64,000 nt of DNA from the NCBI GenBank assembly GCA_964645155.1, contig CAZYBG010000003.1, positions 7,093 through 71,092 on the forward strand. Reading direction: 5' to 3'. This stretch comes from an uncultured Rhodobacterales bacterium (GTDB lineage: Bacteria > Pseudomonadota > Alphaproteobacteria > Rhodobacterales > Rhodobacteraceae). Each line of letters begins with the position of its first letter. Position 1 is the first letter of the stretch. The notes beneath the pieces are model-generated. The model ran no database searches and was not told the origin of the DNA. It saw only the letters and a program-made list of their open reading frames with translations. The position numbers and the translations under genes are program-made. This document shows positions 52 through 42,018 of this stretch, in pieces.

Positions 52-76
52 GGAACCTTCTTCCACCCCGACTGTT
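52..76 (+). promoter_or_regulatory. Weak EcfG-like promoter candidate upstream of levansucrase (GGAAC-N16-TGTT)
   Basis: GGAAC at 52-56 and TGTT at 73-76. The -10 element deviates from [C/G]GTT. Confidence 0.25.
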
Positions 77-3755: not shown

Positions 3756-5645
3756 TCAGTCACCCAGGCGATAGGCCACGACCTGATCGGCCACCTGCGG
3801 CTTCAGGATCGAGTTGCCGCCCGCCACGAAGGCCACGTAGTCGACCCCCTCGTGGGTATAGACCGCCGGGATCGCCACCGCGGGGGCGGCCACGAGGTCC
3901 GACCACAGTTCCTCGCCCGTCGCCGCGTCGAGCGCGCGGACGCGGGCGTCCATCGAGGCGCCGAGGAACACCACGCCCCCGGCCGTCACCACCGGACCGC
4001 CGAGCGTGGGCGAACCCCAGGACGACGGGCCGTAGAAGCCCCATTGCTGCGACCGGCCAAACGGCACCTCGTAGAGCCGCTCGCCCGTCGTGAGGTCGTA
4101 GGCCGAGAATGTCCCGTAGGGCGGCGCCCAGCAGGGCAGGCCCAGCCGGTTGCGCCATTCGGTCAGTTCAATCCCATAGGGCGCGCCTTCCTGCGGGTAG
4201 AAGCCCGCCTCGTTGCCGCTGCCGCCGTCCTCGTATTCGTCGCGCGGGATCAGGCGGACGATCTGCACCACGCGCATCGAGTTGACATAGAGGATGCCGG
4301 TGCGCGGATCGACCGCCGCGCCGCCCCAGTTGTTGGCGCCGGCTGTGCCCGGATACATGATCGTGCCCACCTCGGAGGGCGGGGTGAAGATGCCCTCGTA
4401 GCGGTACTGTTCGCGCTCGCGCGAGCACTGACCGAGGCTTGTCGTGTCGCCGAGCCAGCTTACCGCCGGCATCTCGAACGGGTCGTTCGTCGGCGGCGGC
4501 ACCAGCGCGAAGGGCTGGGTCTCGGCCGCGACCTCGCCGTCGGCGTCGCTCGGCGGCACCGGGCGGTCCTCGATCGGGAAGAGCGGCGTGCCGTCGCGGC
4601 GGTCGAGGACGAAGAGAAAGCCCTGCTTCGTCGTCTGCACCAGCGCCGGCACGATCTGCCCGTCGCGGGTGATGTCGACAAGCTGCGGCGCGGCCGACGT
4701 GTCGTAGTCCCAGATGTCGTGGCGGACATGCTGGAAGTTCCAGCGCAGCTCGCCCGTCGCGACATCGACCGCCGCAACCGACGTGGCGAGCGGGATCGGG
4801 TCGATCCGGTTGCCGCCCCAGTAGTTCGGCGAGGGCGACGAGACGGGGACGTAGACGAGGCCGAGTTCGGGGTCGGCGGCCATCGATGCCCAGATATTGG
4901 CGGTGCCGGTCACCGGGATCAGGTCCTCGGGGATGAAGCCGAGGTCCCAGAGCAGTTCGCCCGTGCGCGCGTCGATCGCCATGAGGTTGCCCGGCGGCGC
5001 CACGGAGTACTCCCAGTCCATCCCCGCCCAGCCGAGCAGCAGCGTGTCGCCCACCACGGTCGGCGGCTGCAGGAGCGAGAACGGAAAGCGCGTGTTCCGG
5101 GTGTTCCACTGGTTGACGTCGAGCACCCCGCCTTCGGCGAAATCGGCGCAGGGGGTGCCGGTATCGGCATCGACCGCATGCAACCTCGCATCCATCGTGC
5201 CGAGGTAGACCCGCTTCTCGCAGGCACCTTCGGCGCCGCTTTCCCAATAGGCCACGCCGCGGTTCTTCAGCGCCGGCTGGGTCAGCGGCTCGAGCGTCGA
5301 CTGGCTGTCGTAGCTCCACCGCTCCGCCCCGGTCGCGGGATCGAGCGCGAGGATGCGGTAGAACGGCGTGCCGAGGTAGAGCGTGTCGTTGGCGTAGATC
5401 GGCGTCGCCGACCAGACCGTCTCGGGCAGCTCGCCCGAACCGTCCGACACATCGCCCGTCCGCACCTCCCAGGCGCGTTCGAGGCGGCCGACGCTTTCCG
5501 GCGTGAAGCCTTCGACATCGGCGAACTTCGTCGCGGCGAGGTCGCCGTTGTAGGTGTCCCATACGGGCTGGTCGGCGCCAGCGGCGGATGCCGCGCAGAG
5601 AATGCCGAGGGCGAGCGGAACGGGCAGCAGGGGCCGGCAGCTCAC
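3756..5645 (-). CDS. PQQ-dependent (quinoprotein) dehydrogenase, periplasmic, glucose/quinate-dehydrogenase-like
   Basis: Start set at GTG 5645, which overlaps the stop of the upstream membrane-protein gene (GTGA). Sec signal LALGILCAASAAGA/DQP. Repeated propeller blocks ALDPATGAERW, AVDADTG, AIDARTGELLW, AVDVATGELRW, ALDAATGEELW. The 5' part of the 835-aa track ORF is Arg/Gly-rich off-frame sequence. Confidence 0.8.
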   Translation of the reverse strand: MSCRPLLPVPLALGILCAASAAGADQPVWDTYNGDLAATKFADVEGFTPESVGRLERAWEVRTGDVSDGSGELPETVWSATPIYANDTLYLGTPFYRILALDPATGAERWSYDSQSTLEPLTQPALKNRGVAYWESGAEGACEKRVYLGTMDARLHAVDADTGTPCADFAEGGVLDVNQWNTRNTRFPFSLLQPPTVVGDTLLLGWAGMDWEYSVAPPGNLMAIDARTGELLWDLGFIPEDLIPVTGTANIWASMAADPELGLVYVPVSSPSPNYWGGNRIDPIPLATSVAAVDVATGELRWNFQHVRHDIWDYDTSAAPQLVDITRDGQIVPALVQTTKQGFLFVLDRRDGTPLFPIEDRPVPPSDADGEVAAETQPFALVPPPTNDPFEMPAVSWLGDTTSLGQCSREREQYRYEGIFTPPSEVGTIMYPGTAGANNWGGAAVDPRTGILYVNSMRVVQIVRLIPRDEYEDGGSGNEAGFYPQEGAPYGIELTEWRNRLGLPCWAPPYGTFSAYDLTTGERLYEVPFGRSQQWGFYGPSSWGSPTLGGPVVTAGGVVFLGASMDARVRALDAATGEELWSDLVAAPAVAIPAVYTHEGVDYVAFVAGGNSILKPQVADQVVAYRLGD

Positions 5646-6049
5646 GATGCCGCCCTCCGGCGCGCGACCGCGGCGCCGAGCGCAACCGCCGCGGCAAGCA
5701 GCATCGCCCCGCACATCAGGAACTGCATCAGGAAGTAGGCGGCCAGCGCAGTCAGGAGCGCGCCGACCACCACCAGCACCTCCAGCAGCGTAAGAAGGCC
5801 GCCGCGCAGTGCGGGCACCGCCGCGAGGAGCGCGCCGAGCGCGACGGCCACTGCGCCGACCAAGGCGAGGAGCGCGCCCGGCGTACCGGTCACGCCCGTT
5901 TCCTCGACGAGGTAGGCCCAAGCACCAAGGCCGGCGCCAGCGAGCGCGGGCACGGCTGCGAGGGCGTGGAACCGGTGGACACGGCCTTCGTCCCGCCAGG
6001 CGGTGGTCGCCACCGCCTGTCGATGCGTCATCACCCGTGCTGCGCCCAT
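5642..6049 (-). CDS. Small integral membrane protein (about 4 TM helices), translationally coupled to the PQQ dehydrogenase
   Basis: 135-aa ORF with long hydrophobic stretches (ALLALVGAVAVALGALLAAV, LLEVLVVVGALLTALAAYFLMQFLM). Its stop overlaps the GTG start of the dehydrogenase. Confidence 0.55.
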   Translation of the reverse strand: MGAARVMTHRQAVATTAWRDEGRVHRFHALAAVPALAGAGLGAWAYLVEETGVTGTPGALLALVGAVAVALGALLAAVPALRGGLLTLLEVLVVVGALLTALAAYFLMQFLMCGAMLLAAAVALGAAVARRRAAS

Positions 6050-6091
6050 GACAAATCCCTTTCCGTCCGCTGCCTAGCCTGCTGCCGGACA

Positions 6092-6117
6092 AACCGCGCC
6101 GTGCAGGCCAAGGTTCC
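6092..6117 (-). promoter_or_regulatory. EcfG-type promoter candidate (GGAAC-N17-GGTT) toward the membrane-protein/PQQ-dehydrogenase genes
   Basis: Plus strand shows AACC at 6092-6095 and GTTCC at 6113-6117. The -10 lies about 43 nt upstream of ATG 6049. Confidence 0.5.
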
Positions 6118-6120
6118 CGC

Positions 6121-6145
6121 GGAACGATCTCGGCACCCGGACGTT
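6121..6145 (+). promoter_or_regulatory. EcfG-type promoter candidate (GGAAC-N16-CGTT) toward ctaG-like/HemJ-like genes
   Basis: GGAAC 6121-6125, 16-nt spacer, CGTT 6142-6145. Confidence 0.5.
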
Positions 6146-6147
6146 CC
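6123..6147 (-). promoter_or_regulatory. EcfG-type promoter candidate (GGAAC-N16-CGTT) on the opposite strand of the same palindrome
   Basis: The reverse complement of 6143-6147 is GGAAC and of 6123-6126 is CGTT. GGAACG (6121-6126) and CGTTCC (6142-6147) form an inverted repeat. Confidence 0.5.
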
Positions 6148-6298
6148 ACGCTGCGACACCCCCGACAGAGACCGCGGGTGGCACTGGAGCGATGGGCGGG
6201 CACATGGGCGATCGGCAGGCGGCAGCAGACCCGGGAGCGACCTCCGGCAGGATCTGCCGCCAACCCGGCTCACCGCGCGTGACCGCCGGCCACCGGCG

Positions 6299-7000
6299 AT
6301 GATCGCGCTCGAGGGCATCTATTGCGGCCCGGCGCCCCTGCCGTCGGAGCTCTGGCTCCGCTGGAACCTCGATCCCGTCCCGATCGCAGGCCTCGCTGCT
6401 CTGGTGTGGCTGGTGCGCGGATCGGTCGCCGGGCTTGCGGGGGTCTTCGTACTTGCGGTGGCGTTCATCTCGCCGCTCTGCGCGCTGTCGGCCGCGCTTT
6501 TCGCCGCGCGGGCCGCCCATCACGTCCTGCTGGTCGCCGTCGCGGCGCCGCTTCTGGCGCTCGCCTTGCCGGCATCGCGCCCGGTGGCCGCGGGGCTGCC
6601 GTTTCTCGCCGCGACGGCGGCGCTCTGGGCGTGGCACGCGCCGGCGGCCTACGACTTGGCCCTTGGCAACGTCGCGGCCTACTGGCTGATGCAGCTCACG
6701 CTGCTCGGGACCGGTGTCTGGTTCTGGCGGGCCACGCTCTCGCGCCCTGCAGGCGCCGGGGCGCTCTGGGTGCTCGGCGCCTACATGGCGATGGGGCTGC
6801 TCGGCGCGCTTCTCACCTTCGCGCCGGTGCCGCTCTACGCGATCCACCGCGTCGCTCCGCTCGACTGGGGGCTGCTCCCGCTCGCCGACCAGCAGCTCGG
6901 CGGGCTTCTGATGTGGGTGCCCGCGGCCCTGCCCTACGCGGTGATGGGTCTCGTCCTCGGGCGGCGGTCGTGGCGCGCGATGCAGGCCGGCGCGGCATGA
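6299..7000 (+). CDS. ctaG: Cytochrome c oxidase assembly factor, CtaG (caa3-type, COG3336)-like membrane protein
   Basis: ATG at 6299 (MIALEGIYCG..). Polytopic membrane protein containing AAHHVLLV and LADQQLGGLLMWVP blocks, typical of the Bacillus-type CtaG family. Located next to an oxidase operon. Confidence 0.6.
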   Translation: MIALEGIYCGPAPLPSELWLRWNLDPVPIAGLAALVWLVRGSVAGLAGVFVLAVAFISPLCALSAALFAARAAHHVLLVAVAAPLLALALPASRPVAAGLPFLAATAALWAWHAPAAYDLALGNVAAYWLMQLTLLGTGVWFWRATLSRPAGAGALWVLGAYMAMGLLGALLTFAPVPLYAIHRVAPLDWGLLPLADQQLGGLLMWVPAALPYAVMGLVLGRRSWRAMQAGAA

Positions 7001-7506
7001 TGGCGATCGAGCCCCTGGTCCCGCATCTGAAGGCGCTGCATATCGCCGCGCTCGCGATCTGGGTCGCGGCGCTCTTCGCGATCCCGGCGATGCTGGCGCG
7101 CCACGATCCGGCGATCGGCCAGGACGACTACGCCCGGATCCGCCGGGCGACGCATTTCAGCTACACCGCCTTGATGACCCCGGCCGCGGTCATCGCCGTC
7201 GCTTCCGGCACCCTCCTCATCTTCCTGCGGGGCGCGTTCTTTCCCTGGCTTATGGCCAAGCTGGTGCTCGTGGCCATGATGGTCGTCTTCCATGCGTGGC
7301 TCGGCCACACCCTCGTCAAGGTCGCCGAGACAGAGGGCGAACACGACCCGCCGGAGCCGCTGCTGCCCTCGCTCATCCTGACGGTGCTGGTGGCGGGCGT
7401 GCTCGGCCTGGTGCTGGCGAAACCGGAACTCGACGAGATCGCGATGCCGGACTGGCTGACCGAGCCGAGGGGAGGTCAGCTCCCCTTCGCGGTTCCCAGA
7501 CGGTAG
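6997..7506 (+). CDS. HemJ/CopD-like (UPF0093-type) membrane protein
   Basis: ATGA overlap with ctaG. The N-terminus LKALHIAALAIWVAALFAIPAMLARHD matches the HemJ-family pattern (LKA-H-I..W.A.LF..P....H). 4-5 TM helices. Confidence 0.45.
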   Translation: MMAIEPLVPHLKALHIAALAIWVAALFAIPAMLARHDPAIGQDDYARIRRATHFSYTALMTPAAVIAVASGTLLIFLRGAFFPWLMAKLVLVAMMVVFHAWLGHTLVKVAETEGEHDPPEPLLPSLILTVLVAGVLGLVLAKPELDEIAMPDWLTEPRGGQLPFAVPRR

Positions 7507-7991
7507 TCGAAGACGAGCTTGCCGCCATGCCAGCCGGTCACCGCCACCACCAGCACGTTGAAGCCCGAGAGCAGGATGCCCCACGGCAGGATCGCCGACT
7601 CGTAGCCGGTGAGCCGCCAGCCCCAGTTGAGGCCGAGGAGCGACAGCAGCAGGACGGCGATGATGAAGTGCGTCCAGGCCGCAGCCCGCGCGCGGATGCC
7701 CCGCACCATCAGCAGTTCCATGGTTCCCGAGGCCCCCGCCGCGAGGCCGAAGAGAAAGGCCGTGCCCGACGCCCAGAGCGCCGCCCAGGCCCATTGCTGG
7801 CTGCCCGACCACCAGTAGAGCGCATCAGCCCCGAAGGTGCAGAAGGTCAGCGCCACCGGGAACGCGACCGTCATGGCGTGGATCGGGTGGCCCCAGACGG
7901 CCAGCCGAGATTCCGTCTCGTGAAAGCCTTCGCGCATGCTGATCGGGTCGATCAGCGTCTCGTCGCGATCCTGCACCATCTTGTCGGCCAT
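7476..7991 (-). CDS. DUF2231-like integral membrane protein
   Basis: 171-aa ORF. WGHPIHAMTVAFPVAL motif followed by 4 TM helices. Converges on and overlaps the previous gene by 31 nt. Confidence 0.5.
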   Translation of the reverse strand: MADKMVQDRDETLIDPISMREGFHETESRLAVWGHPIHAMTVAFPVALTFCTFGADALYWWSGSQQWAWAALWASGTAFLFGLAAGASGTMELLMVRGIRARAAAWTHFIIAVLLLSLLGLNWGWRLTGYESAILPWGILLSGFNVLVVAVTGWHGGKLVFDYRLGTAKGS

Positions 7992-8681
7992 CGCCCTGCC
8001 CTTTACCCGTCCGCTGCCGCCCTAACGCTCACCGCGCTTTCCGGTTGCACCGAACGGCTGTCGGCCCTGCATCCGGCCGGACCGGCGGCGGCGACCATCG
8101 CGACCTTGTGGTGGATCCTGCTCGGCGGGGCTGCGCTGATCTTCCTGTTCGTGATGCTGCTCCTCGCGCTCGCGCTGCGGGCGCGGCCGGGTGCCGGCCG
8201 CGGCCCGGCGCAGGCGGGCGAGCGTGTCTGGCTCTGGGGCCTGGGGCTTGCCTTTCCGCTCGTCGTTCTGGCCGCGCTCACCGCCTACGGGCTGACGGTG
8301 GGCGAGCGGCTGCGGCCGCGCCCGTCGGACCGCGTGGTGACGGTCGGCGCCGAGGCCCGGCAATGGGCGTGGCGCTTTACCTATGCCGACGCGCCGGGGC
8401 TGGCGACCGAGGGCGTCCTCCATATCCCGGCGGGCCGGCCGGTCGATGTGCGGATCACCTCGCAGGACGTGATCCATTCCTTCTGGGTGCCGCGGCTCGC
8501 CGGTAAGCTCGACGCGGTACCGGGCCACGTGAACGTCCTGCGCATCGAGGCGGACCGGCCCGGCGAATATGCCGGCGTCAGCAGCGAATACAGCGGGCCG
8601 GGCTATCTCGACCACGGCTTCGCGGTGATCGCGCACGACCCCGCGCAGTGGCCGGCAGCACTGTCGGAGGCCACCCGATGA
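7920..8681 (+). CDS. Heme-copper oxidase subunit II, QoxA/CyoA-like (lipoprotein signal, CuA ligands lost)
   Basis: Lipobox and following block LTALSGC-TERLSALHPAGPAA resemble QoxA/CyoA (..GGC..LDPKGP.A). Two TM helices. Cupredoxin domain with DVIHSFWVP, but the CuA motif C-x-E-x-C-G-x2-H-x2-M reads SSEYSGPGYLDH. The start is uncertain: GTG 7920 is the nearest canonical start upstream of the lipobox, and TTG 8106 is the alternative. Confidence 0.7.
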   Translation: MKAFAHADRVDQRLVAILHHLVGHRPALYPSAAALTLTALSGCTERLSALHPAGPAAATIATLWWILLGGAALIFLFVMLLLALALRARPGAGRGPAQAGERVWLWGLGLAFPLVVLAALTAYGLTVGERLRPRPSDRVVTVGAEARQWAWRFTYADAPGLATEGVLHIPAGRPVDVRITSQDVIHSFWVPRLAGKLDAVPGHVNVLRIEADRPGEYAGVSSEYSGPGYLDHGFAVIAHDPAQWPAALSEATR

Positions 8682-11194
8682 CCGCGCTCCGCCGCCACCG
8701 GGCGCTGACGCGCATCTGGACCTCCGACCCGGGCTGGCGCGGCTGGCTCACGACGGTCAACCACACCGATGTCGGGCGGATGTTCCTCGTCACCTCGACG
8801 GTGTTCTTTCTGGTCGGCGGCATCCTGGCCATGCTGATCCGGGCGCAGCTCGCCTCGCCGCGATCGGCCTTCCTCGGCGCCGAGGCCTACGCGCAGGTCT
8901 TCACGATGCACGGCACCGTGATGATGTTCCTCTTTGCCATTCCGCTGATCGAGGGCCTCGCGCTCTACCTCCTGCCGAAGCTGCTCGGCAGCCGCGATCT
9001 CGCCTTCCCGCGCCTCTCGGCCTTCGGCTTCTGGTGCTACGCCTTCGGCGGCACGTTCCTCCTCGGCGCGATGGTGGCCGGGCTCGCCCCCGACGGCGGC
9101 TGGTTCATGTACCCGCCGCTGACCTCGTCGACCTACAGCCCGGGGATCAATGCCGATGTCTGGCTCCTGGGCGTCACCTTCGTCGAGATCTCTGCCGTCG
9201 CGGCGGCGGTCGAGATCACCGTGACGATCCTGCGCTTCCGCGCGGCCGGAATGGCGCTGTCGCGGATGCCGATCCTGGCCTGGTACCTGCTGGTGGTCGC
9301 GGTGATGATCCTCACCGCCTTCCCGCCGCTGATCCTCGGCTCGGTCCTGCTCGAGCTGGAGCGGGCCTTCGGCCTGCCGTTCTTCGACCCTACGCGCGGC
9401 GGCGACGCGCTGCTCTGGCAGCACCTGTTCTGGCTTTTCGGCCATCCGGAGGTCTACATCATCTTCCTGCCTGCCGCGGGCGTCGTCTCCACCGTCCTGC
9501 CGGTCATGGCGCGGACCGAACTCGTGGGCTACGGCTGGGTCGTGGCGGCCGCGATCGCGCTCGGCGTGCTCAGCTTCGGCATCTGGGTCCACCACATGTT
9601 CGCGACCGGCATCCCGCACATGGGCCTCGCCTTCTTCTCGGCGGCCTCGACGCTGGTCGCGGTGCCGACGGCGGTGCAGGTCTTTGCCTGGATCGGTACG
9701 CTCTGGCGCGGCGCGCCCGAACTGCGGCTGCCGATGATGTGGATCCTGGCCTTCTTCGCAACCTTCGTGATCGGCGGACTGACCGGCGTCATGGTGGCGG
9801 TGGTGCCGTTCGACTGGCAGGTGCACGACACCCATTTCATCGTCGCGCACCTGCACTACGTGCTGGTCGGCGGCTTCGTCTTCCCGATGCTCGCCGGGCT
9901 CTACCACTGGCTGCCGCACCTGACCGGCCGGCGCCGCTTCTTCAAGCTGGGCGAAGTGGCGTTCTGGCTGATCTTCGCCGGCTTCCACCTGACCTTCCTG
10001 CTGGTCCACTGGGTCGGGCTGATGGGCCAGCGGCGGCGTACCTTCACCTACGAACCGGGCCAGGGCTGGGAGGTCATCAACCTGATCGCCTCGGTCGGCG
10101 GCTTCGTGACCGCGATCGGCTTCGGCGTGGTGCTGCTCGACATCGTGCTGAACGCCGCGGTGGCGGTGCGCGGCCGCCGCAACCCCTGGCGCGCCGGAAC
10201 GCTCGAATGGGCGCAGCCGACACCGGCGCCGGCCTACAACTTCGCCTCGATCCCGTGCGTTCAGGGCCGCGAGCCGCTGGCGGACGATCCCGGTATCGGC
10301 CTCAGGATCGCGCGTGGCGAGTTCCTGCTCGGCGATACGGCGCGCGGCCGGCGCGAGACGCTGATGGTCAGCGTGGCAACGGGCCGGCCCGCGGCGGTCG
10401 TGGTCTTTCCCGGCAACACCGCGCTGCCGATGCTGCTTGCGGCGGTCACCGGCAGCTTCTTCGCCGGCGTGCTCTTCAAGCTCTACTGGCTCATCCCGCT
10501 TGCGGTGCTCGGCATCGCGGCGCTGGCGATGCACTGGGCCTGGCAGCTCGGCACCACCGCCGACGAGGGGCCGGTCGATGCCGGGATGGGCCTCCGTCTG
10601 CCGCTCGCCTCCGAGACGCCGGACCCGCCGGGCTGGTGGGGCTCGCTGTTCCTTCTGCTGGCCGATGCCGTGCTCTTCGGCGCGCTTCTCTTCGGCTATG
10701 CCTTCCTCTGGACGGTCGCCCCGAACTGGCCGCCGCCCGCCTATCCCGCGCCCGAGGCGCTGGGGCTCGCGCTCGCCGCGGCGGGTGCCGCGGCCGCGGC
10801 GGCGGGCCCCCGGCTTGCCGGCGGTGCCATCGCCCGCGGCGGCGGCACCCGGGCGGGGGCGGTTCGGGGGGCGGTCCGGGGGGCGTTTCCGGGGTTGGTC
10901 CTCGGGCTCGCCGGCTGCGGCGCGCTTTGCGGCGCGGCGGCGACGCTCGCGCTCGCCGCCGATCCGACCGGCCATGCGCATGGCGCGACGCTCTGGGCGA
11001 TCGCGGGCTACATCGTGCTCCACGCCGCGCTGGCGGGCCTGATGCACCTCTACCTCATCGCCCGGGTGGCGCGCGGCTACGCCTCGCCCGCACGGATCGG
11101 CGAGGCGCGGATCCTGCGGCTCTGGGCCGACTGGGCGGCCGTGACGGCGCTGGCGGGGCTTGCCGCCGGCTGGGCGCCGGGGGTCGCGGCATGA
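8678..11194 (+). CDS. Heme-copper oxidase subunit I fused to a subunit III-like C-terminal domain
   Basis: ATGA overlap with subunit II. Subunit I motifs are all present: FTMHGTVMMF, WLFGHPEVYIIFLPAAG, WVHHMFATG, HDTHFIVAHLHYV. The C-terminal ~290 aa carry subunit III-like helices (GWWGSLFLLLADAVLFGALLFGYAFLW). Confidence 0.85.
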   Translation: MTALRRHRALTRIWTSDPGWRGWLTTVNHTDVGRMFLVTSTVFFLVGGILAMLIRAQLASPRSAFLGAEAYAQVFTMHGTVMMFLFAIPLIEGLALYLLPKLLGSRDLAFPRLSAFGFWCYAFGGTFLLGAMVAGLAPDGGWFMYPPLTSSTYSPGINADVWLLGVTFVEISAVAAAVEITVTILRFRAAGMALSRMPILAWYLLVVAVMILTAFPPLILGSVLLELERAFGLPFFDPTRGGDALLWQHLFWLFGHPEVYIIFLPAAGVVSTVLPVMARTELVGYGWVVAAAIALGVLSFGIWVHHMFATGIPHMGLAFFSAASTLVAVPTAVQVFAWIGTLWRGAPELRLPMMWILAFFATFVIGGLTGVMVAVVPFDWQVHDTHFIVAHLHYVLVGGFVFPMLAGLYHWLPHLTGRRRFFKLGEVAFWLIFAGFHLTFLLVHWVGLMGQRRRTFTYEPGQGWEVINLIASVGGFVTAIGFGVVLLDIVLNAAVAVRGRRNPWRAGTLEWAQPTPAPAYNFASIPCVQGREPLADDPGIGLRIARGEFLLGDTARGRRETLMVSVATGRPAAVVVFPGNTALPMLLAAVTGSFFAGVLFKLYWLIPLAVLGIAALAMHWAWQLGTTADEGPVDAGMGLRLPLASETPDPPGWWGSLFLLLADAVLFGALLFGYAFLWTVAPNWPPPAYPAPEALGLALAAAGAAAAAAGPRLAGGAIARGGGTRAGAVRGAVRGAFPGLVLGLAGCGALCGAAATLALAADPTGHAHGATLWAIAGYIVLHAALAGLMHLYLIARVARGYASPARIGEARILRLWADWAAVTALAGLAAGWAPGVAA

Positions 11195-11493
11195 CGCTGA
11201 TCCTGCGCCTTTCGCTGCCGCTGTCGCTGTGGCTCGCCTGCTTCAGCGCCGTCTACGGGCTGCAGGGCCTGGCCTGCTCGCGCCACTGGCCGCCGGGGCT
11301 CGAGGCCCGCCCGGTGCTGGTCGGAGCCGCTGCGCTCGCGATCCTGCTGCAGCTCGGGCTGTTCCGGCTGGCTGCGCGGGACCCGGCCGGCGCCGACCCG
11401 GCCGCCAAGCTTGCGTTGCCGCTCTGGCTGACCGCGCTCGTTGCCTCCGGCTGGACGCTGCTGCCCACCGTCTTCACCACGATCTGCGGCTGA
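11191..11493 (+). CDS. Small membrane protein (possible oxidase subunit IV-like)
   Basis: 100-aa ORF with ATGA overlap to subunit I/III. Three hydrophobic segments. Position is equivalent to small subunits in oxidase operons. Confidence 0.45.
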   Translation: MTLILRLSLPLSLWLACFSAVYGLQGLACSRHWPPGLEARPVLVGAAALAILLQLGLFRLAARDPAGADPAAKLALPLWLTALVASGWTLLPTVFTTICG

Positions 11494-26904: not shown

Positions 26905-27986
26905 CTGACGAACGCAGCAGCGCCGAGATCGAACGCGAGATCGAGGCCGAACGTGGCGCCCTGGCCGGAACGCTCCGCGACATCCGCGAGAGCGTTTCGG
27001 TGGAAGCGGCGGTCCAGCGGATCGCCGAGAGCCTGCGCAGCAACAGCGGCGAGATCGCCGGGGCGGTGGGCCGCCAGGTGCGGGCCAACCCGCTCGGCGT
27101 CGCGCTCACGGGCATCGGGCTCGCATGGCTGATGATGGGGCCTCACACCCCGGATGCCGGCCGCGGAATGTCGGCGTCGGGCCGGCGCTTTGACGATGAC
27201 GACGATGACGACTGGGCCGTCGGCCGCTCGGACGTGGCCGACCGGGGCGCCTACCGGCCTTCGCCCGGCCTTGGCTTCGAAGACAGCATGTATGCCGGCG
27301 AAGAGCTGGGCGGCATGGATGCCGGGGCCCGGGACGGCGACGAGGCCGACCAGGGCAACGGCAGCACCGGGGCCGGCTGGACCGGGTCGGGCGCCGGCAG
27401 CGCCGCCCGGCGTCTGCGCTCGCGCAGCGCCGATCTGCGCAGCCGCATGCAGCACGGTCTCGAGGACCTCTCGGGCGCGGCGCGCGAGCGGGTGCTCGCC
27501 GCGCGGCGGGCGGCCGTCCATGCCCGGCAGCGGGCCGAAAGCATCGCGCGCCGCGGCACCCGGCGGGCGGCCGGCTTCTACCACGAGGCGCCGCTGGTAT
27601 CGGGCGCGGTCGCGATGGCAGTCGGCGCGGCGGTCGGCGCGCTTCTGCCCCGGACGCGAACCGAGGACGACCTGATGGGCGCCGAGTCGGACCGGTTGAT
27701 GGACGAGGCCCGGCGCATCTACGACGAGGAGAAGTCGCGGCTGGCGGATGCGGGTCGGGCCGTCGTCGAGACCGGGCGCGAAGCCGCGGGCGAGATCGCC
27801 GACGCGGCCGGCAAGGCGCTGACATCGGCCGGCCAGCGGATGGACGATCGCGAGCCGGGGCAGACCGGCAGCGATGATGGAACAGATGGAAGCGGGATGG
27901 ACCGTCCGCCGCCGGACGAGCCCGATCGCGACCTGCCGGGCACGATGCCTCCGATGCGCGGACCTTCGGGGCGCAGCATCGGCTGA
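26901..27986 (+). CDS. DUF3618-domain protein
   Basis: ATGA overlap. N-terminus ERSSAEIEREIEAERGALAGTLRDI is characteristic of DUF3618. Acidic low-complexity centre and a TM segment. Confidence 0.6.
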   Translation: MTDERSSAEIEREIEAERGALAGTLRDIRESVSVEAAVQRIAESLRSNSGEIAGAVGRQVRANPLGVALTGIGLAWLMMGPHTPDAGRGMSASGRRFDDDDDDDWAVGRSDVADRGAYRPSPGLGFEDSMYAGEELGGMDAGARDGDEADQGNGSTGAGWTGSGAGSAARRLRSRSADLRSRMQHGLEDLSGAARERVLAARRAAVHARQRAESIARRGTRRAAGFYHEAPLVSGAVAMAVGAAVGALLPRTRTEDDLMGAESDRLMDEARRIYDEEKSRLADAGRAVVETGREAAGEIADAAGKALTSAGQRMDDREPGQTGSDDGTDGSGMDRPPPDEPDRDLPGTMPPMRGPSGRSIG

Positions 27987-38343: not shown

Positions 38344-38379
38344 GGGCGGGGCTCCTCGACGCGTTTCGCGAGGTTCCGG

Positions 38380-38404
38380 AACCGGAGGTGGTCGGGTTTG
38401 TTCC
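38380..38404 (-). promoter_or_regulatory. EcfG-type promoter candidate (GGAAC-N16-GGTT) toward the SDR..CgeBx3..uxs operon
   Basis: Plus strand AACC 38380-38383 and GTTCC 38400-38404. The -10 lies 37 nt upstream of ATG 38343 and overlaps the 12-bp palindrome GGTTCCGGAACC (38372-38383). Confidence 0.55.
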
Positions 38405-38601
38405 CGGCTTTCCAGCGACTTCGGCGGAAGCGGGGGCGGAAGCGGGCCGGTTCTTCAACTTCATCAATGACTTCCGTGGAGACCGCCGGCAGCCGGTCGG
38501 GCGCCGCCGGCGGCACGGCAGCCGCGACCGGGAACAAAGCGCCGGCAGCGCCGGTTCGCCCCCCGCGCCGCGTCCCGGCGCGACCAACCCCGGGGGCTGC
38601 A

Positions 38602-41389: not shown

Positions 41390-41875
41390 TCAGATCGCCC
41401 GGTCGCCGAGTTCCGCCATCACCATCGCGCGGGCGCGGTTCACGCGGCTCTTGATCGTGCCGACCTCGCAGCCGCAGATGCGGGCCGCCGTCTCGTAGCT
41501 TTCGCCCATCATCACGACCAGGACGAGCGTCTCGCGGTAGTGGTTCGGCAGGCGCTGAACCACCCTCATCAGCTCGCCGCCGCGCACCACCCACTCCTGG
41601 GTCGAGGCGCTCGATGCCGTGCCCGACACGCAGTCCTCCGAACCGGTGCGCTCGCGCTTGGTCTTGGCCAGCGTGTTGAAGAACGAATTGCGCATGATCG
41701 TGAATAGCCACGCCCGCAGCCGCGTGCCCGGGGTGAAGCTGTCGATGTTCGCCAGCGCCCGCACCAGCGTGTCCTGGACAAGATCATCGGCATCGGGGCG
41801 GTTGCGGCACAGGACATAGGCATAGGCCCTGAGCGCCGGCAGGAGCGCCACGACATCGGCCCGGACATCCGGCAT
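41390..41875 (-). CDS. ecfG: ECF sigma factor, EcfG/RpoE2-type (general stress response)
   Basis: ATG 41875. LPALRAYAYVLCRNRPDADDLVQDTLVRALANIDSFTPGTRLRAWLFTIMRN and ICGCEVGTIKSRVNRAR closely follow the S. meliloti RpoE2 pattern as I recall it. Confidence 0.8.
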   Translation of the reverse strand: MPDVRADVVALLPALRAYAYVLCRNRPDADDLVQDTLVRALANIDSFTPGTRLRAWLFTIMRNSFFNTLAKTKRERTGSEDCVSGTASSASTQEWVVRGGELMRVVQRLPNHYRETLVLVVMMGESYETAARICGCEVGTIKSRVNRARAMVMAELGDRAI

Positions 41876-41951
41876 GTTCCTTGCTGCTTCGACCACGTGT
41901 TGCGAACCCGTCGACAGAGACGATACCCCCGAGCGGGGGCGTTGCGCGCAT

Positions 41952-41977
41952 AACGCCGTTGTCGCGACAGCAGTTCC
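41952..41977 (-). promoter_or_regulatory. EcfG-type promoter candidate (GGAAC-N17-CGTT), autoregulatory position upstream of ecfG
   Basis: Plus strand AACG 41952-41955 and GTTCC 41973-41977. Lies between the NepR-like ORF stop (42019) and the ecfG ATG (41875). Confidence 0.6.
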
Positions 41978-42018
41978 GGAGCTTTCCAACCCCCGGTAGA
42001 GCCGGGCGGCGGCGGCGC

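Follow-up and report, generated by a model that had tools for sequence, protein, structure and literature searches.

We found that three matches to the EcfG promoter consensus interlock within 56 bp of a 249-bp divergent intergenic region (6050-6298), which lies between a PQQ-dehydrogenase operon and an oxidase-assembly operon in the window, that is, the whole 64,000-nucleotide stretch of DNA analysed here. Judged from its sequence, this element probably works through a back-to-back divergent pair of promoters, P3(-) and P(+), that would co-induce the dehydrogenase and oxidase operons, with the third promoter, P2(-), as an extra. The palindrome formed by P(+) and P2(-), which had first drawn attention to the site, is a by-product of the EcfG consensus and, given one promoter, is no more frequent than expected by chance.

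EcfG-type elements in the divergent intergenic region

The initial annotation had described the site as a palindromic, potentially bidirectional EcfG promoter with a third motif in tandem, and its reading of the letters holds throughout. The inverted repeats are exact, with GGAACG at 6121-6126 and CGTTCC at 6142-6147 separated by a gap of 15 nt, and the 27 bp from 6121 to 6147 read GGAAC-N16-CGTT from either strand. The third motif is present on the minus strand, where GGAAC (6117-6113) is followed after 17 nt by GGTT (6095-6092). The neighbours also match the names given to them, namely a PQQ dehydrogenase and a membrane protein on the minus strand and ctaG-like and HemJ-like genes on the plus strand (Table 1). 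All three boxes combine a -35 element GGAAC with a -10 element (C/G)GTT at 16-17 nt. The EcfG consensus has been given as GGAAC-N16-CGTT, with documented flexibility in the -10 box (PMC7083833), and as GAAC-N16,17-C/GGTT, which covers the GGTT variant (PMC4814048).

Table 1. Coordinates of the promoter elements, the flanking genes and the conserved module (positions in the window unless another locus is named).
Feature	Position	Strand	Description
P(+)	6121-6145	+	GGAAC-N16-CGTT, facing the ctaG-like/UPF0093 oxidase-assembly operon
P2(-)	6123-6147	-	palindromic GGAAC-N16-CGTT reading
P3(-)	6092-6117	-	GGAAC-N17-GGTT
Back-to-back -35 core, GTTCC-CGC-GGAAC	6113-6125		common to P3(-) and P(+)
PQQ-dependent dehydrogenase	3756-5645	-	PF01011, 1.2e-184
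Small membrane protein	5642-6049	-	135 aa, ~4 TM helices
Caa3_CtaG-like oxidase assembly factor	6299-7000	+	start ATG 6299 consistent with orthologues
UPF0093/HemJ-like membrane protein	6970-7506	+	overlaps ctaG
Remaining conserved oxidase module	7476-11194		DUF2231 (-), COX2 (+), fused COX1/3 (+)
Conserved module, window	3756-11493		
Conserved module, L033	10001-17427		
Conserved module, L034	10001-17538		

The three elements differ in their distance to the genes they face. P3(-) ends 43 nt before ATG 6049, a typical distance, and the same layout is found in homologous operons. P(+), whose GGAAC lies at 6121-6125 and CGTT at 6142-6145, and its mirror image P2(-) are set off by 2 bp between the strands, and the symmetric GGAAC-N17-GTTCC that they form is flanked on both sides by oppositely oriented genes (154 nt from the plus-side -10 to ATG 6299, 74 nt from the minus-side -10 to ATG 6049). 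No sigma-70-like promoter or terminator was detected in a scan of 5500-6800, in which P(+) is the sole recognisable promoter before ctaG. Neither the palindrome nor the 147-nt plus leader gave a credible Rfam match, and a stable RNA fold considered for the same sequences was discarded on unremarkable z-scores (0.06, -0.49 and 0.40). The plus leader contains a possible 36-codon upstream ORF (6193-6302, +) whose TGA overlaps the ctaG ATG (ATGA) and which lacks a good ribosome-binding site.

On the minus side, the genes for the small membrane protein and the PQQ dehydrogenase overlap by 4 nt, and ATG 6049 has an AAGGGA Shine-Dalgarno-like site. Compared with its homologues, which are 111-116 aa long, the small membrane protein carries an N-terminal extension of 12-24 residues, the length depending on whether translation is taken to start at ATG 6049, ATG 6031 or GTG 6013. 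A PQQ dehydrogenase gene follows in all eight homologous loci that we read. The small protein is probably a separate membrane/quinone-docking module for the dehydrogenase; at one homologous locus the latter is labelled quinoprotein glucose dehydrogenase, which fits a split membrane module.

The general stress system and its motif class

The window belongs to a 3.65-Mb draft genome (71% GC) of an alphaproteobacterium that encodes about 10 ECF sigma factors and a PhyR-NepR-EcfG partner switch. Specifically, contig C25 carries the canonical general-stress locus, in which an ECF sigma gene comes immediately after a NepR gene (PF18557, 56.6 bits) with its own GGAAC-N17-CGTT in front, and a gene for a PhyR-like protein, made up of a sigma-like domain and a receiver, is divergent from nepR-ecfG. 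A second EcfG-like sigma gene is found in the window itself (41390-41989, -), together with a GGAAC-N17-CGTT at 41952-41977 (-), and both EcfG-like sigma factors match PhyR_sigma2.

In the window, the motif occurs four times against 0.44 expected, and none of 100 shuffles reached that number. For the whole genome, a codon-usage model yielded 3605 genes (89% coding), and motif counts were restricted to intergenic DNA, because genome-wide counts of GGAAC-Nx-CGTT are dominated by three-base coding periodicity. The intergenic counts of this motif peak at N16 (19) and N17 (14), with about 3 at other spacings, and those of GGAAC-Nx-GGTT behave alike (20 at N16, 11 at N17 and about 3 elsewhere); genome-wide, about 60-70 intergenic sites have the motif at the N16/N17 spacing. 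Genes 3' of these sites include those for CsbD, DUF1328, DUF378, DUF3072, Hva1_TUDOR and a PLDc_N small membrane protein, which are typical general-stress proteins. The motif is thus both enriched at its spacing and located before genes of stress-regulon types. Assignment of the three boxes to the EcfG type, as proposed in the initial annotation, is well supported by the phyR/nepR-ecfG locus, the N16/17 peak, the stress genes downstream and the occurrence of the motif at homologous operons. Given that the genome has phyR and nepR-ecfG and some 60-70 like sites, many of them before stress genes, the three boxes are very probably real EcfG promoters.

Across the sites, the -10 box lies a median of 48 nt from the start codon (10-90% range, 30-154 nt); the 154-nt leader of P(+) sits at the 90th percentile, and we counted this against the plus-arm promoter. 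A regulon-derived position weight matrix holds almost no information outside the core. It ranks P(+) and P2(-) low, a G after GGAAC being under-represented (12 of 71), and places even the bona fide nepR promoter only 80th of 85; because it is barely informative, we did not use it for ranking. Taken as a whole, the window is a general-stress island that holds some 11 of the approximately 80 intergenic EcfG-type sites in the genome. A GGAAC-N17-GTT at 52-76 (+) lies 94 nt upstream of a levansucrase gene (170-1582). On metagenome contig L051, a levansucrase gene follows the small-membrane-protein/PQQ-dehydrogenase pair, with GGAAC-N17-GGTT (2357-2382) 69 nt upstream. These levansucrase sites hint that sucrose/levan metabolism is tied to the dehydrogenase under stress control.

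Symmetry of the consensus and known two-way promoters

The EcfG consensus is self-complementary: wherever GTT runs into CC, the opposite strand reads GGAAC. A GGAAC-N17-GTT with CC next to it is therefore a match on both strands. In this genome, 5 of the 48 unique N17 sites (10%) are palindromic in this sense, and CC follows 14.2% of all intergenic GTT, which is the frequency expected by chance. We thus found no sign of selection on symmetry, and P2(-) exists because CGTT happens to precede CC and GGAAC happens to precede G. Some palindromes have a gene on a single side (C179 and C48 in this genome; 19748-19774 in L033). A second palindrome in the window (38373-38404) consists of GGAAC-N17-GTTCC with an abutting GTTCCGGAAC core and has a minus-strand gene at 37 nt and a plus-strand gene at 200 nt, the latter with an additional site of its own (GGAAC-N17-GGTT, 38531-38556). 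The back-to-back arrangement of -35 boxes is not a recurrent design in this genome either: among 11 intergenic occurrences of GTTCC-N0-5-GGAAC, -10 boxes on both sides are found at 6113-6125 only.

These counts bear on the reading in which the 27-bp palindrome is the main bidirectional element, its two orientations compete and thereby set the ratio of dehydrogenase to oxidase, and P3(-) is auxiliary. Both readings of the palindrome are perfect GGAAC-N16-CGTT, genes lie at usable distances on either side, RNA-seq places starts on either side of a symmetric site in Erythrobacter litoralis, and orientation competition is discussed for sigma-70 bidirectional promoters (PMC12825309). We nevertheless consider this reading unlikely: symmetry is no more frequent than chance, one-sided palindromes occur in this genome and in L033, and P3(-), at its canonical distance and in agreement with the homologues, already explains the minus arm.

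The initial annotation also took a face-to-face, fully overlapping pair of ECF promoters to be undescribed. This is wrong, since a bidirectional GGAAC-N17-GTTCC EcfG site has been published. In E. litoralis DSM 8509, this site drives nepR-ecfG in one direction and gsrP, an HWE kinase gene, in the other, and two-way firing is supported by RNA-seq (Fiebig et al., bioRxiv 10.1101/641647). That preprint names Staron et al. 2009 as the source of the hypothesis of two-way expression from near-palindromic EcfG sites. The two sites share the identical symmetric GGAAC-N17-GTTCC, the -10 box of either strand lying within the -35 box of the other, and both lie between divergent genes with both directions in the general stress regulon (in the window, as predicted from sequence). 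They differ in that the E. litoralis site, known from transcripts, serves a regulatory locus, whereas the one in the window, predicted from sequence, stands between PQQ-dehydrogenase and oxidase-assembly operons and adds a third promoter, P3(-), that abuts back to back. The two-way EcfG design is thus already described, and the site in the window is a further, ordinary example of it.

Divergent EcfG-dependent promoters of phyR and nepR-ecfG are a general alphaproteobacterial feature (PMC4814048), and those of this genome face and overlap each other (C25:27416-27441, +, and 27423-27448, -). At this locus, GGAAC-N18-GTT faces phyR and GGAAC-N17-CGTT faces nepR (C25:27416-27448; about 1677-1709 in L001). 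As in the window, two EcfG promoters share one short divergent intergenic region, but they serve other genes and their offset is 7 bp rather than the 2 bp at 6121-6147, so that they do not form a perfect palindrome. For sigma-70, both bidirectional promoters that owe their origin to sequence symmetry and competition between orientations are established topics (PMC10268837; PMC12825309). The two cases would be alike in that a pseudo-symmetric consensus yields two-way activity as a by-product and one polymerase excludes the other. The geometry differs: sigma-70 promoters of this kind overlap in their symmetric -10 elements and give diverging transcripts, whereas in the window the overlap is between one promoter's -35 and its partner's -10, and the 5' ends of the predicted transcripts overlap by about 37 nt.

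A pattern scan for the three-box layout returned one true analogue, in an uncultured Rhodobacterales MAG (CAZPPH010000022.1, L044), where positions 4278-4333 have the same sequence as 912-967 of metagenome contig L038. It shares with the window the layout AACC-N17-GTTCC-CGC-GGAAC-N17-GTTCC and the identical GGTTCCCGCGGAAC core, and differs in its flanking genes, both of stress type: a DUF883-like gene at 27 nt and a small DUF1328 gene whose distance from the plus-side -10 is 39 nt. The spacer of its palindrome resembles the reverse complement of the window's spacer; as a case for spacer homology we rejected this resemblance, which reached p ~0.017 in one of four tests and is not significant after correction.

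A conserved dehydrogenase-oxidase module and its proposed control

Homologous operons support the minus arm in particular, and support for the plus arm is contextual. In five loci (G140, L027, L029, L031 and L052) a strict motif, GGAAC-N16-(C/G/T)GTT, lies at most 40 nt from the start of the gene for the small membrane protein, and the variant AGAAC-N16-CGTT precedes this gene in L030; G007 has no EcfG-type motif before this start and L050 only a distant one. An EcfG-type motif is thus conserved before the small-membrane-protein/PQQ-dehydrogenase operon in 5-6 of 8 loci. In L030, L033 (GCA_964575185.1) and L034 (GCA_031425795.1), ctaG follows 17-57 nt 3' of the dehydrogenase gene on the same strand, with a single EcfG-type promoter upstream of the first gene. 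The order in L033 and L034 is small membrane protein, PQQ dehydrogenase, CtaG, UPF0093, DUF2231 (reverse), COX2, COX1/3 and a 100-aa ORF. Relative to this layout, the small-membrane-protein/PQQ-dehydrogenase pair is inverted in the window, so each arm needs a promoter of its own. No convincing inverted repeats that might mark such an event were found on either side of the inverted segment.

The small membrane protein was found in 2 of 120 sampled genomes of the family and in none of 400 of the class, and a ctaG cluster in 4 of 36 sampled family genomes, without an adjacent dehydrogenase. The stand-alone ctaG cluster in G033 has an EcfG-like sigma gene (L022 8662-9372, -) and a small ORF directly upstream, and this sigma gene is itself preceded by GGAAC-N16-GGTT; a gene beside it we take, by eye, to be YciF/DUF892-like. 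Among stand-alone ctaG clusters, G029 has only GGAAC-N18-TT upstream and no clear EcfG motif, and in G012 no EcfG motif was found upstream. The genus of the window's genome has no other representative for comparison, and an orthologous divergent region was found neither in the family and class genomes sampled nor in a search of genome and metagenome contigs for related loci.

We propose that P3(-) would drive the small-membrane-protein/PQQ-dehydrogenase operon from its canonical distance, as in the homologues, and that P(+) would drive ctaG-UPF0093 and perhaps further oxidase genes, a role that would fall to it because the inversion ended read-through from the dehydrogenase promoter. Stress would then co-induce a periplasmic sugar dehydrogenase together with its dedicated terminal oxidase. 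P2(-) would be a free mirror image of P(+) that offers the minus operon a second, upstream start. We regard P3(-) as highly likely to be functional and P(+) as likely to be so, only slightly less firmly, and we give even chances to a measurable contribution from P2(-). Being a perfect consensus, P2(-) is probably bound by EcfG holoenzyme too. Its predicted start near 6116 would lie inside the -35 box of P3(-), and its occupancy would exclude P(+) and occlude that box. Because the footprint of P2(-) coincides with that of P(+) and its start falls within the -35 box of P3(-), the three promoters would not all be occupied at once; we infer this mutual exclusion from general polymerase footprints. 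Two-way firing, and competition between the directions, are plausible from the sequence. The start sites, the dependence on EcfG at this locus and the history of the inversion are likewise what we infer.

A stronger version of this competition, in which the 56-bp element arose after the inversion of the dehydrogenase pair as a three-promoter competition device, with holoenzyme on P2(-) blocking both P(+) and P3(-), appears improbable to us. If it were true, mutually exclusive orientations would set a fixed ratio, or a cell-to-cell anticorrelation, of PQQ dehydrogenase and quinol oxidase during the general stress response. It is a little harder still to credit that the minus strand alone is served, with P2(-) and P3(-) as a tandem for the dehydrogenase operon, an accidental P(+), and ctaG transcribed from an unrecognised promoter in 6150-6298. 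Such a reading would suit the long plus leader, the confinement of comparative support to the minus arm and the stand-alone ctaG clusters without a clear motif (G012 and G029). Against it, no other promoter is detectable before ctaG, relatives have ctaG either co-directional behind an EcfG promoter or behind an EcfG-like sigma gene, and the analogue in L044 has its DUF1328 gene close to the plus-side -10. Finally, GGAAC-type -35 boxes are common among ECF families and this genome has many ECF sigma factors, yet the inverted repeats are very unlikely to serve a dimeric transcription factor as its operator, or a different ECF sigma factor of similar consensus as its target, as their arms are exactly EcfG boxes at EcfG spacing, the same motif class is found at the nepR and phyR promoters and at typical stress genes, palindromes are not enriched, and the site shows neither an RNA family match nor an unusually stable fold.

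Overall, our findings favour the P3(-)/P(+) pair as the working core of the element. Owing to the self-complementary consensus, roughly one in ten EcfG promoters reads both strands for free. The 2-bp offset between the boxes makes the three promoters separately removable, and the fragment is thus a convenient one for studying orientation competition by an ECF holoenzyme. The papers that we consulted for EcfG control of PQQ dehydrogenases or oxidases offered nothing relevant. We consider the apparent stress control of a conserved PQQ-dehydrogenase-plus-oxidase module a more useful biological result than the palindrome. The module of small membrane protein, PQQ dehydrogenase, CtaG, UPF0093, DUF2231, COX2 and COX1/3 appears to be a member of the general-stress regulon in several lineages, which suggests that these bacteria may possess a stress-induced respiratory branch for periplasmic sugar oxidation.
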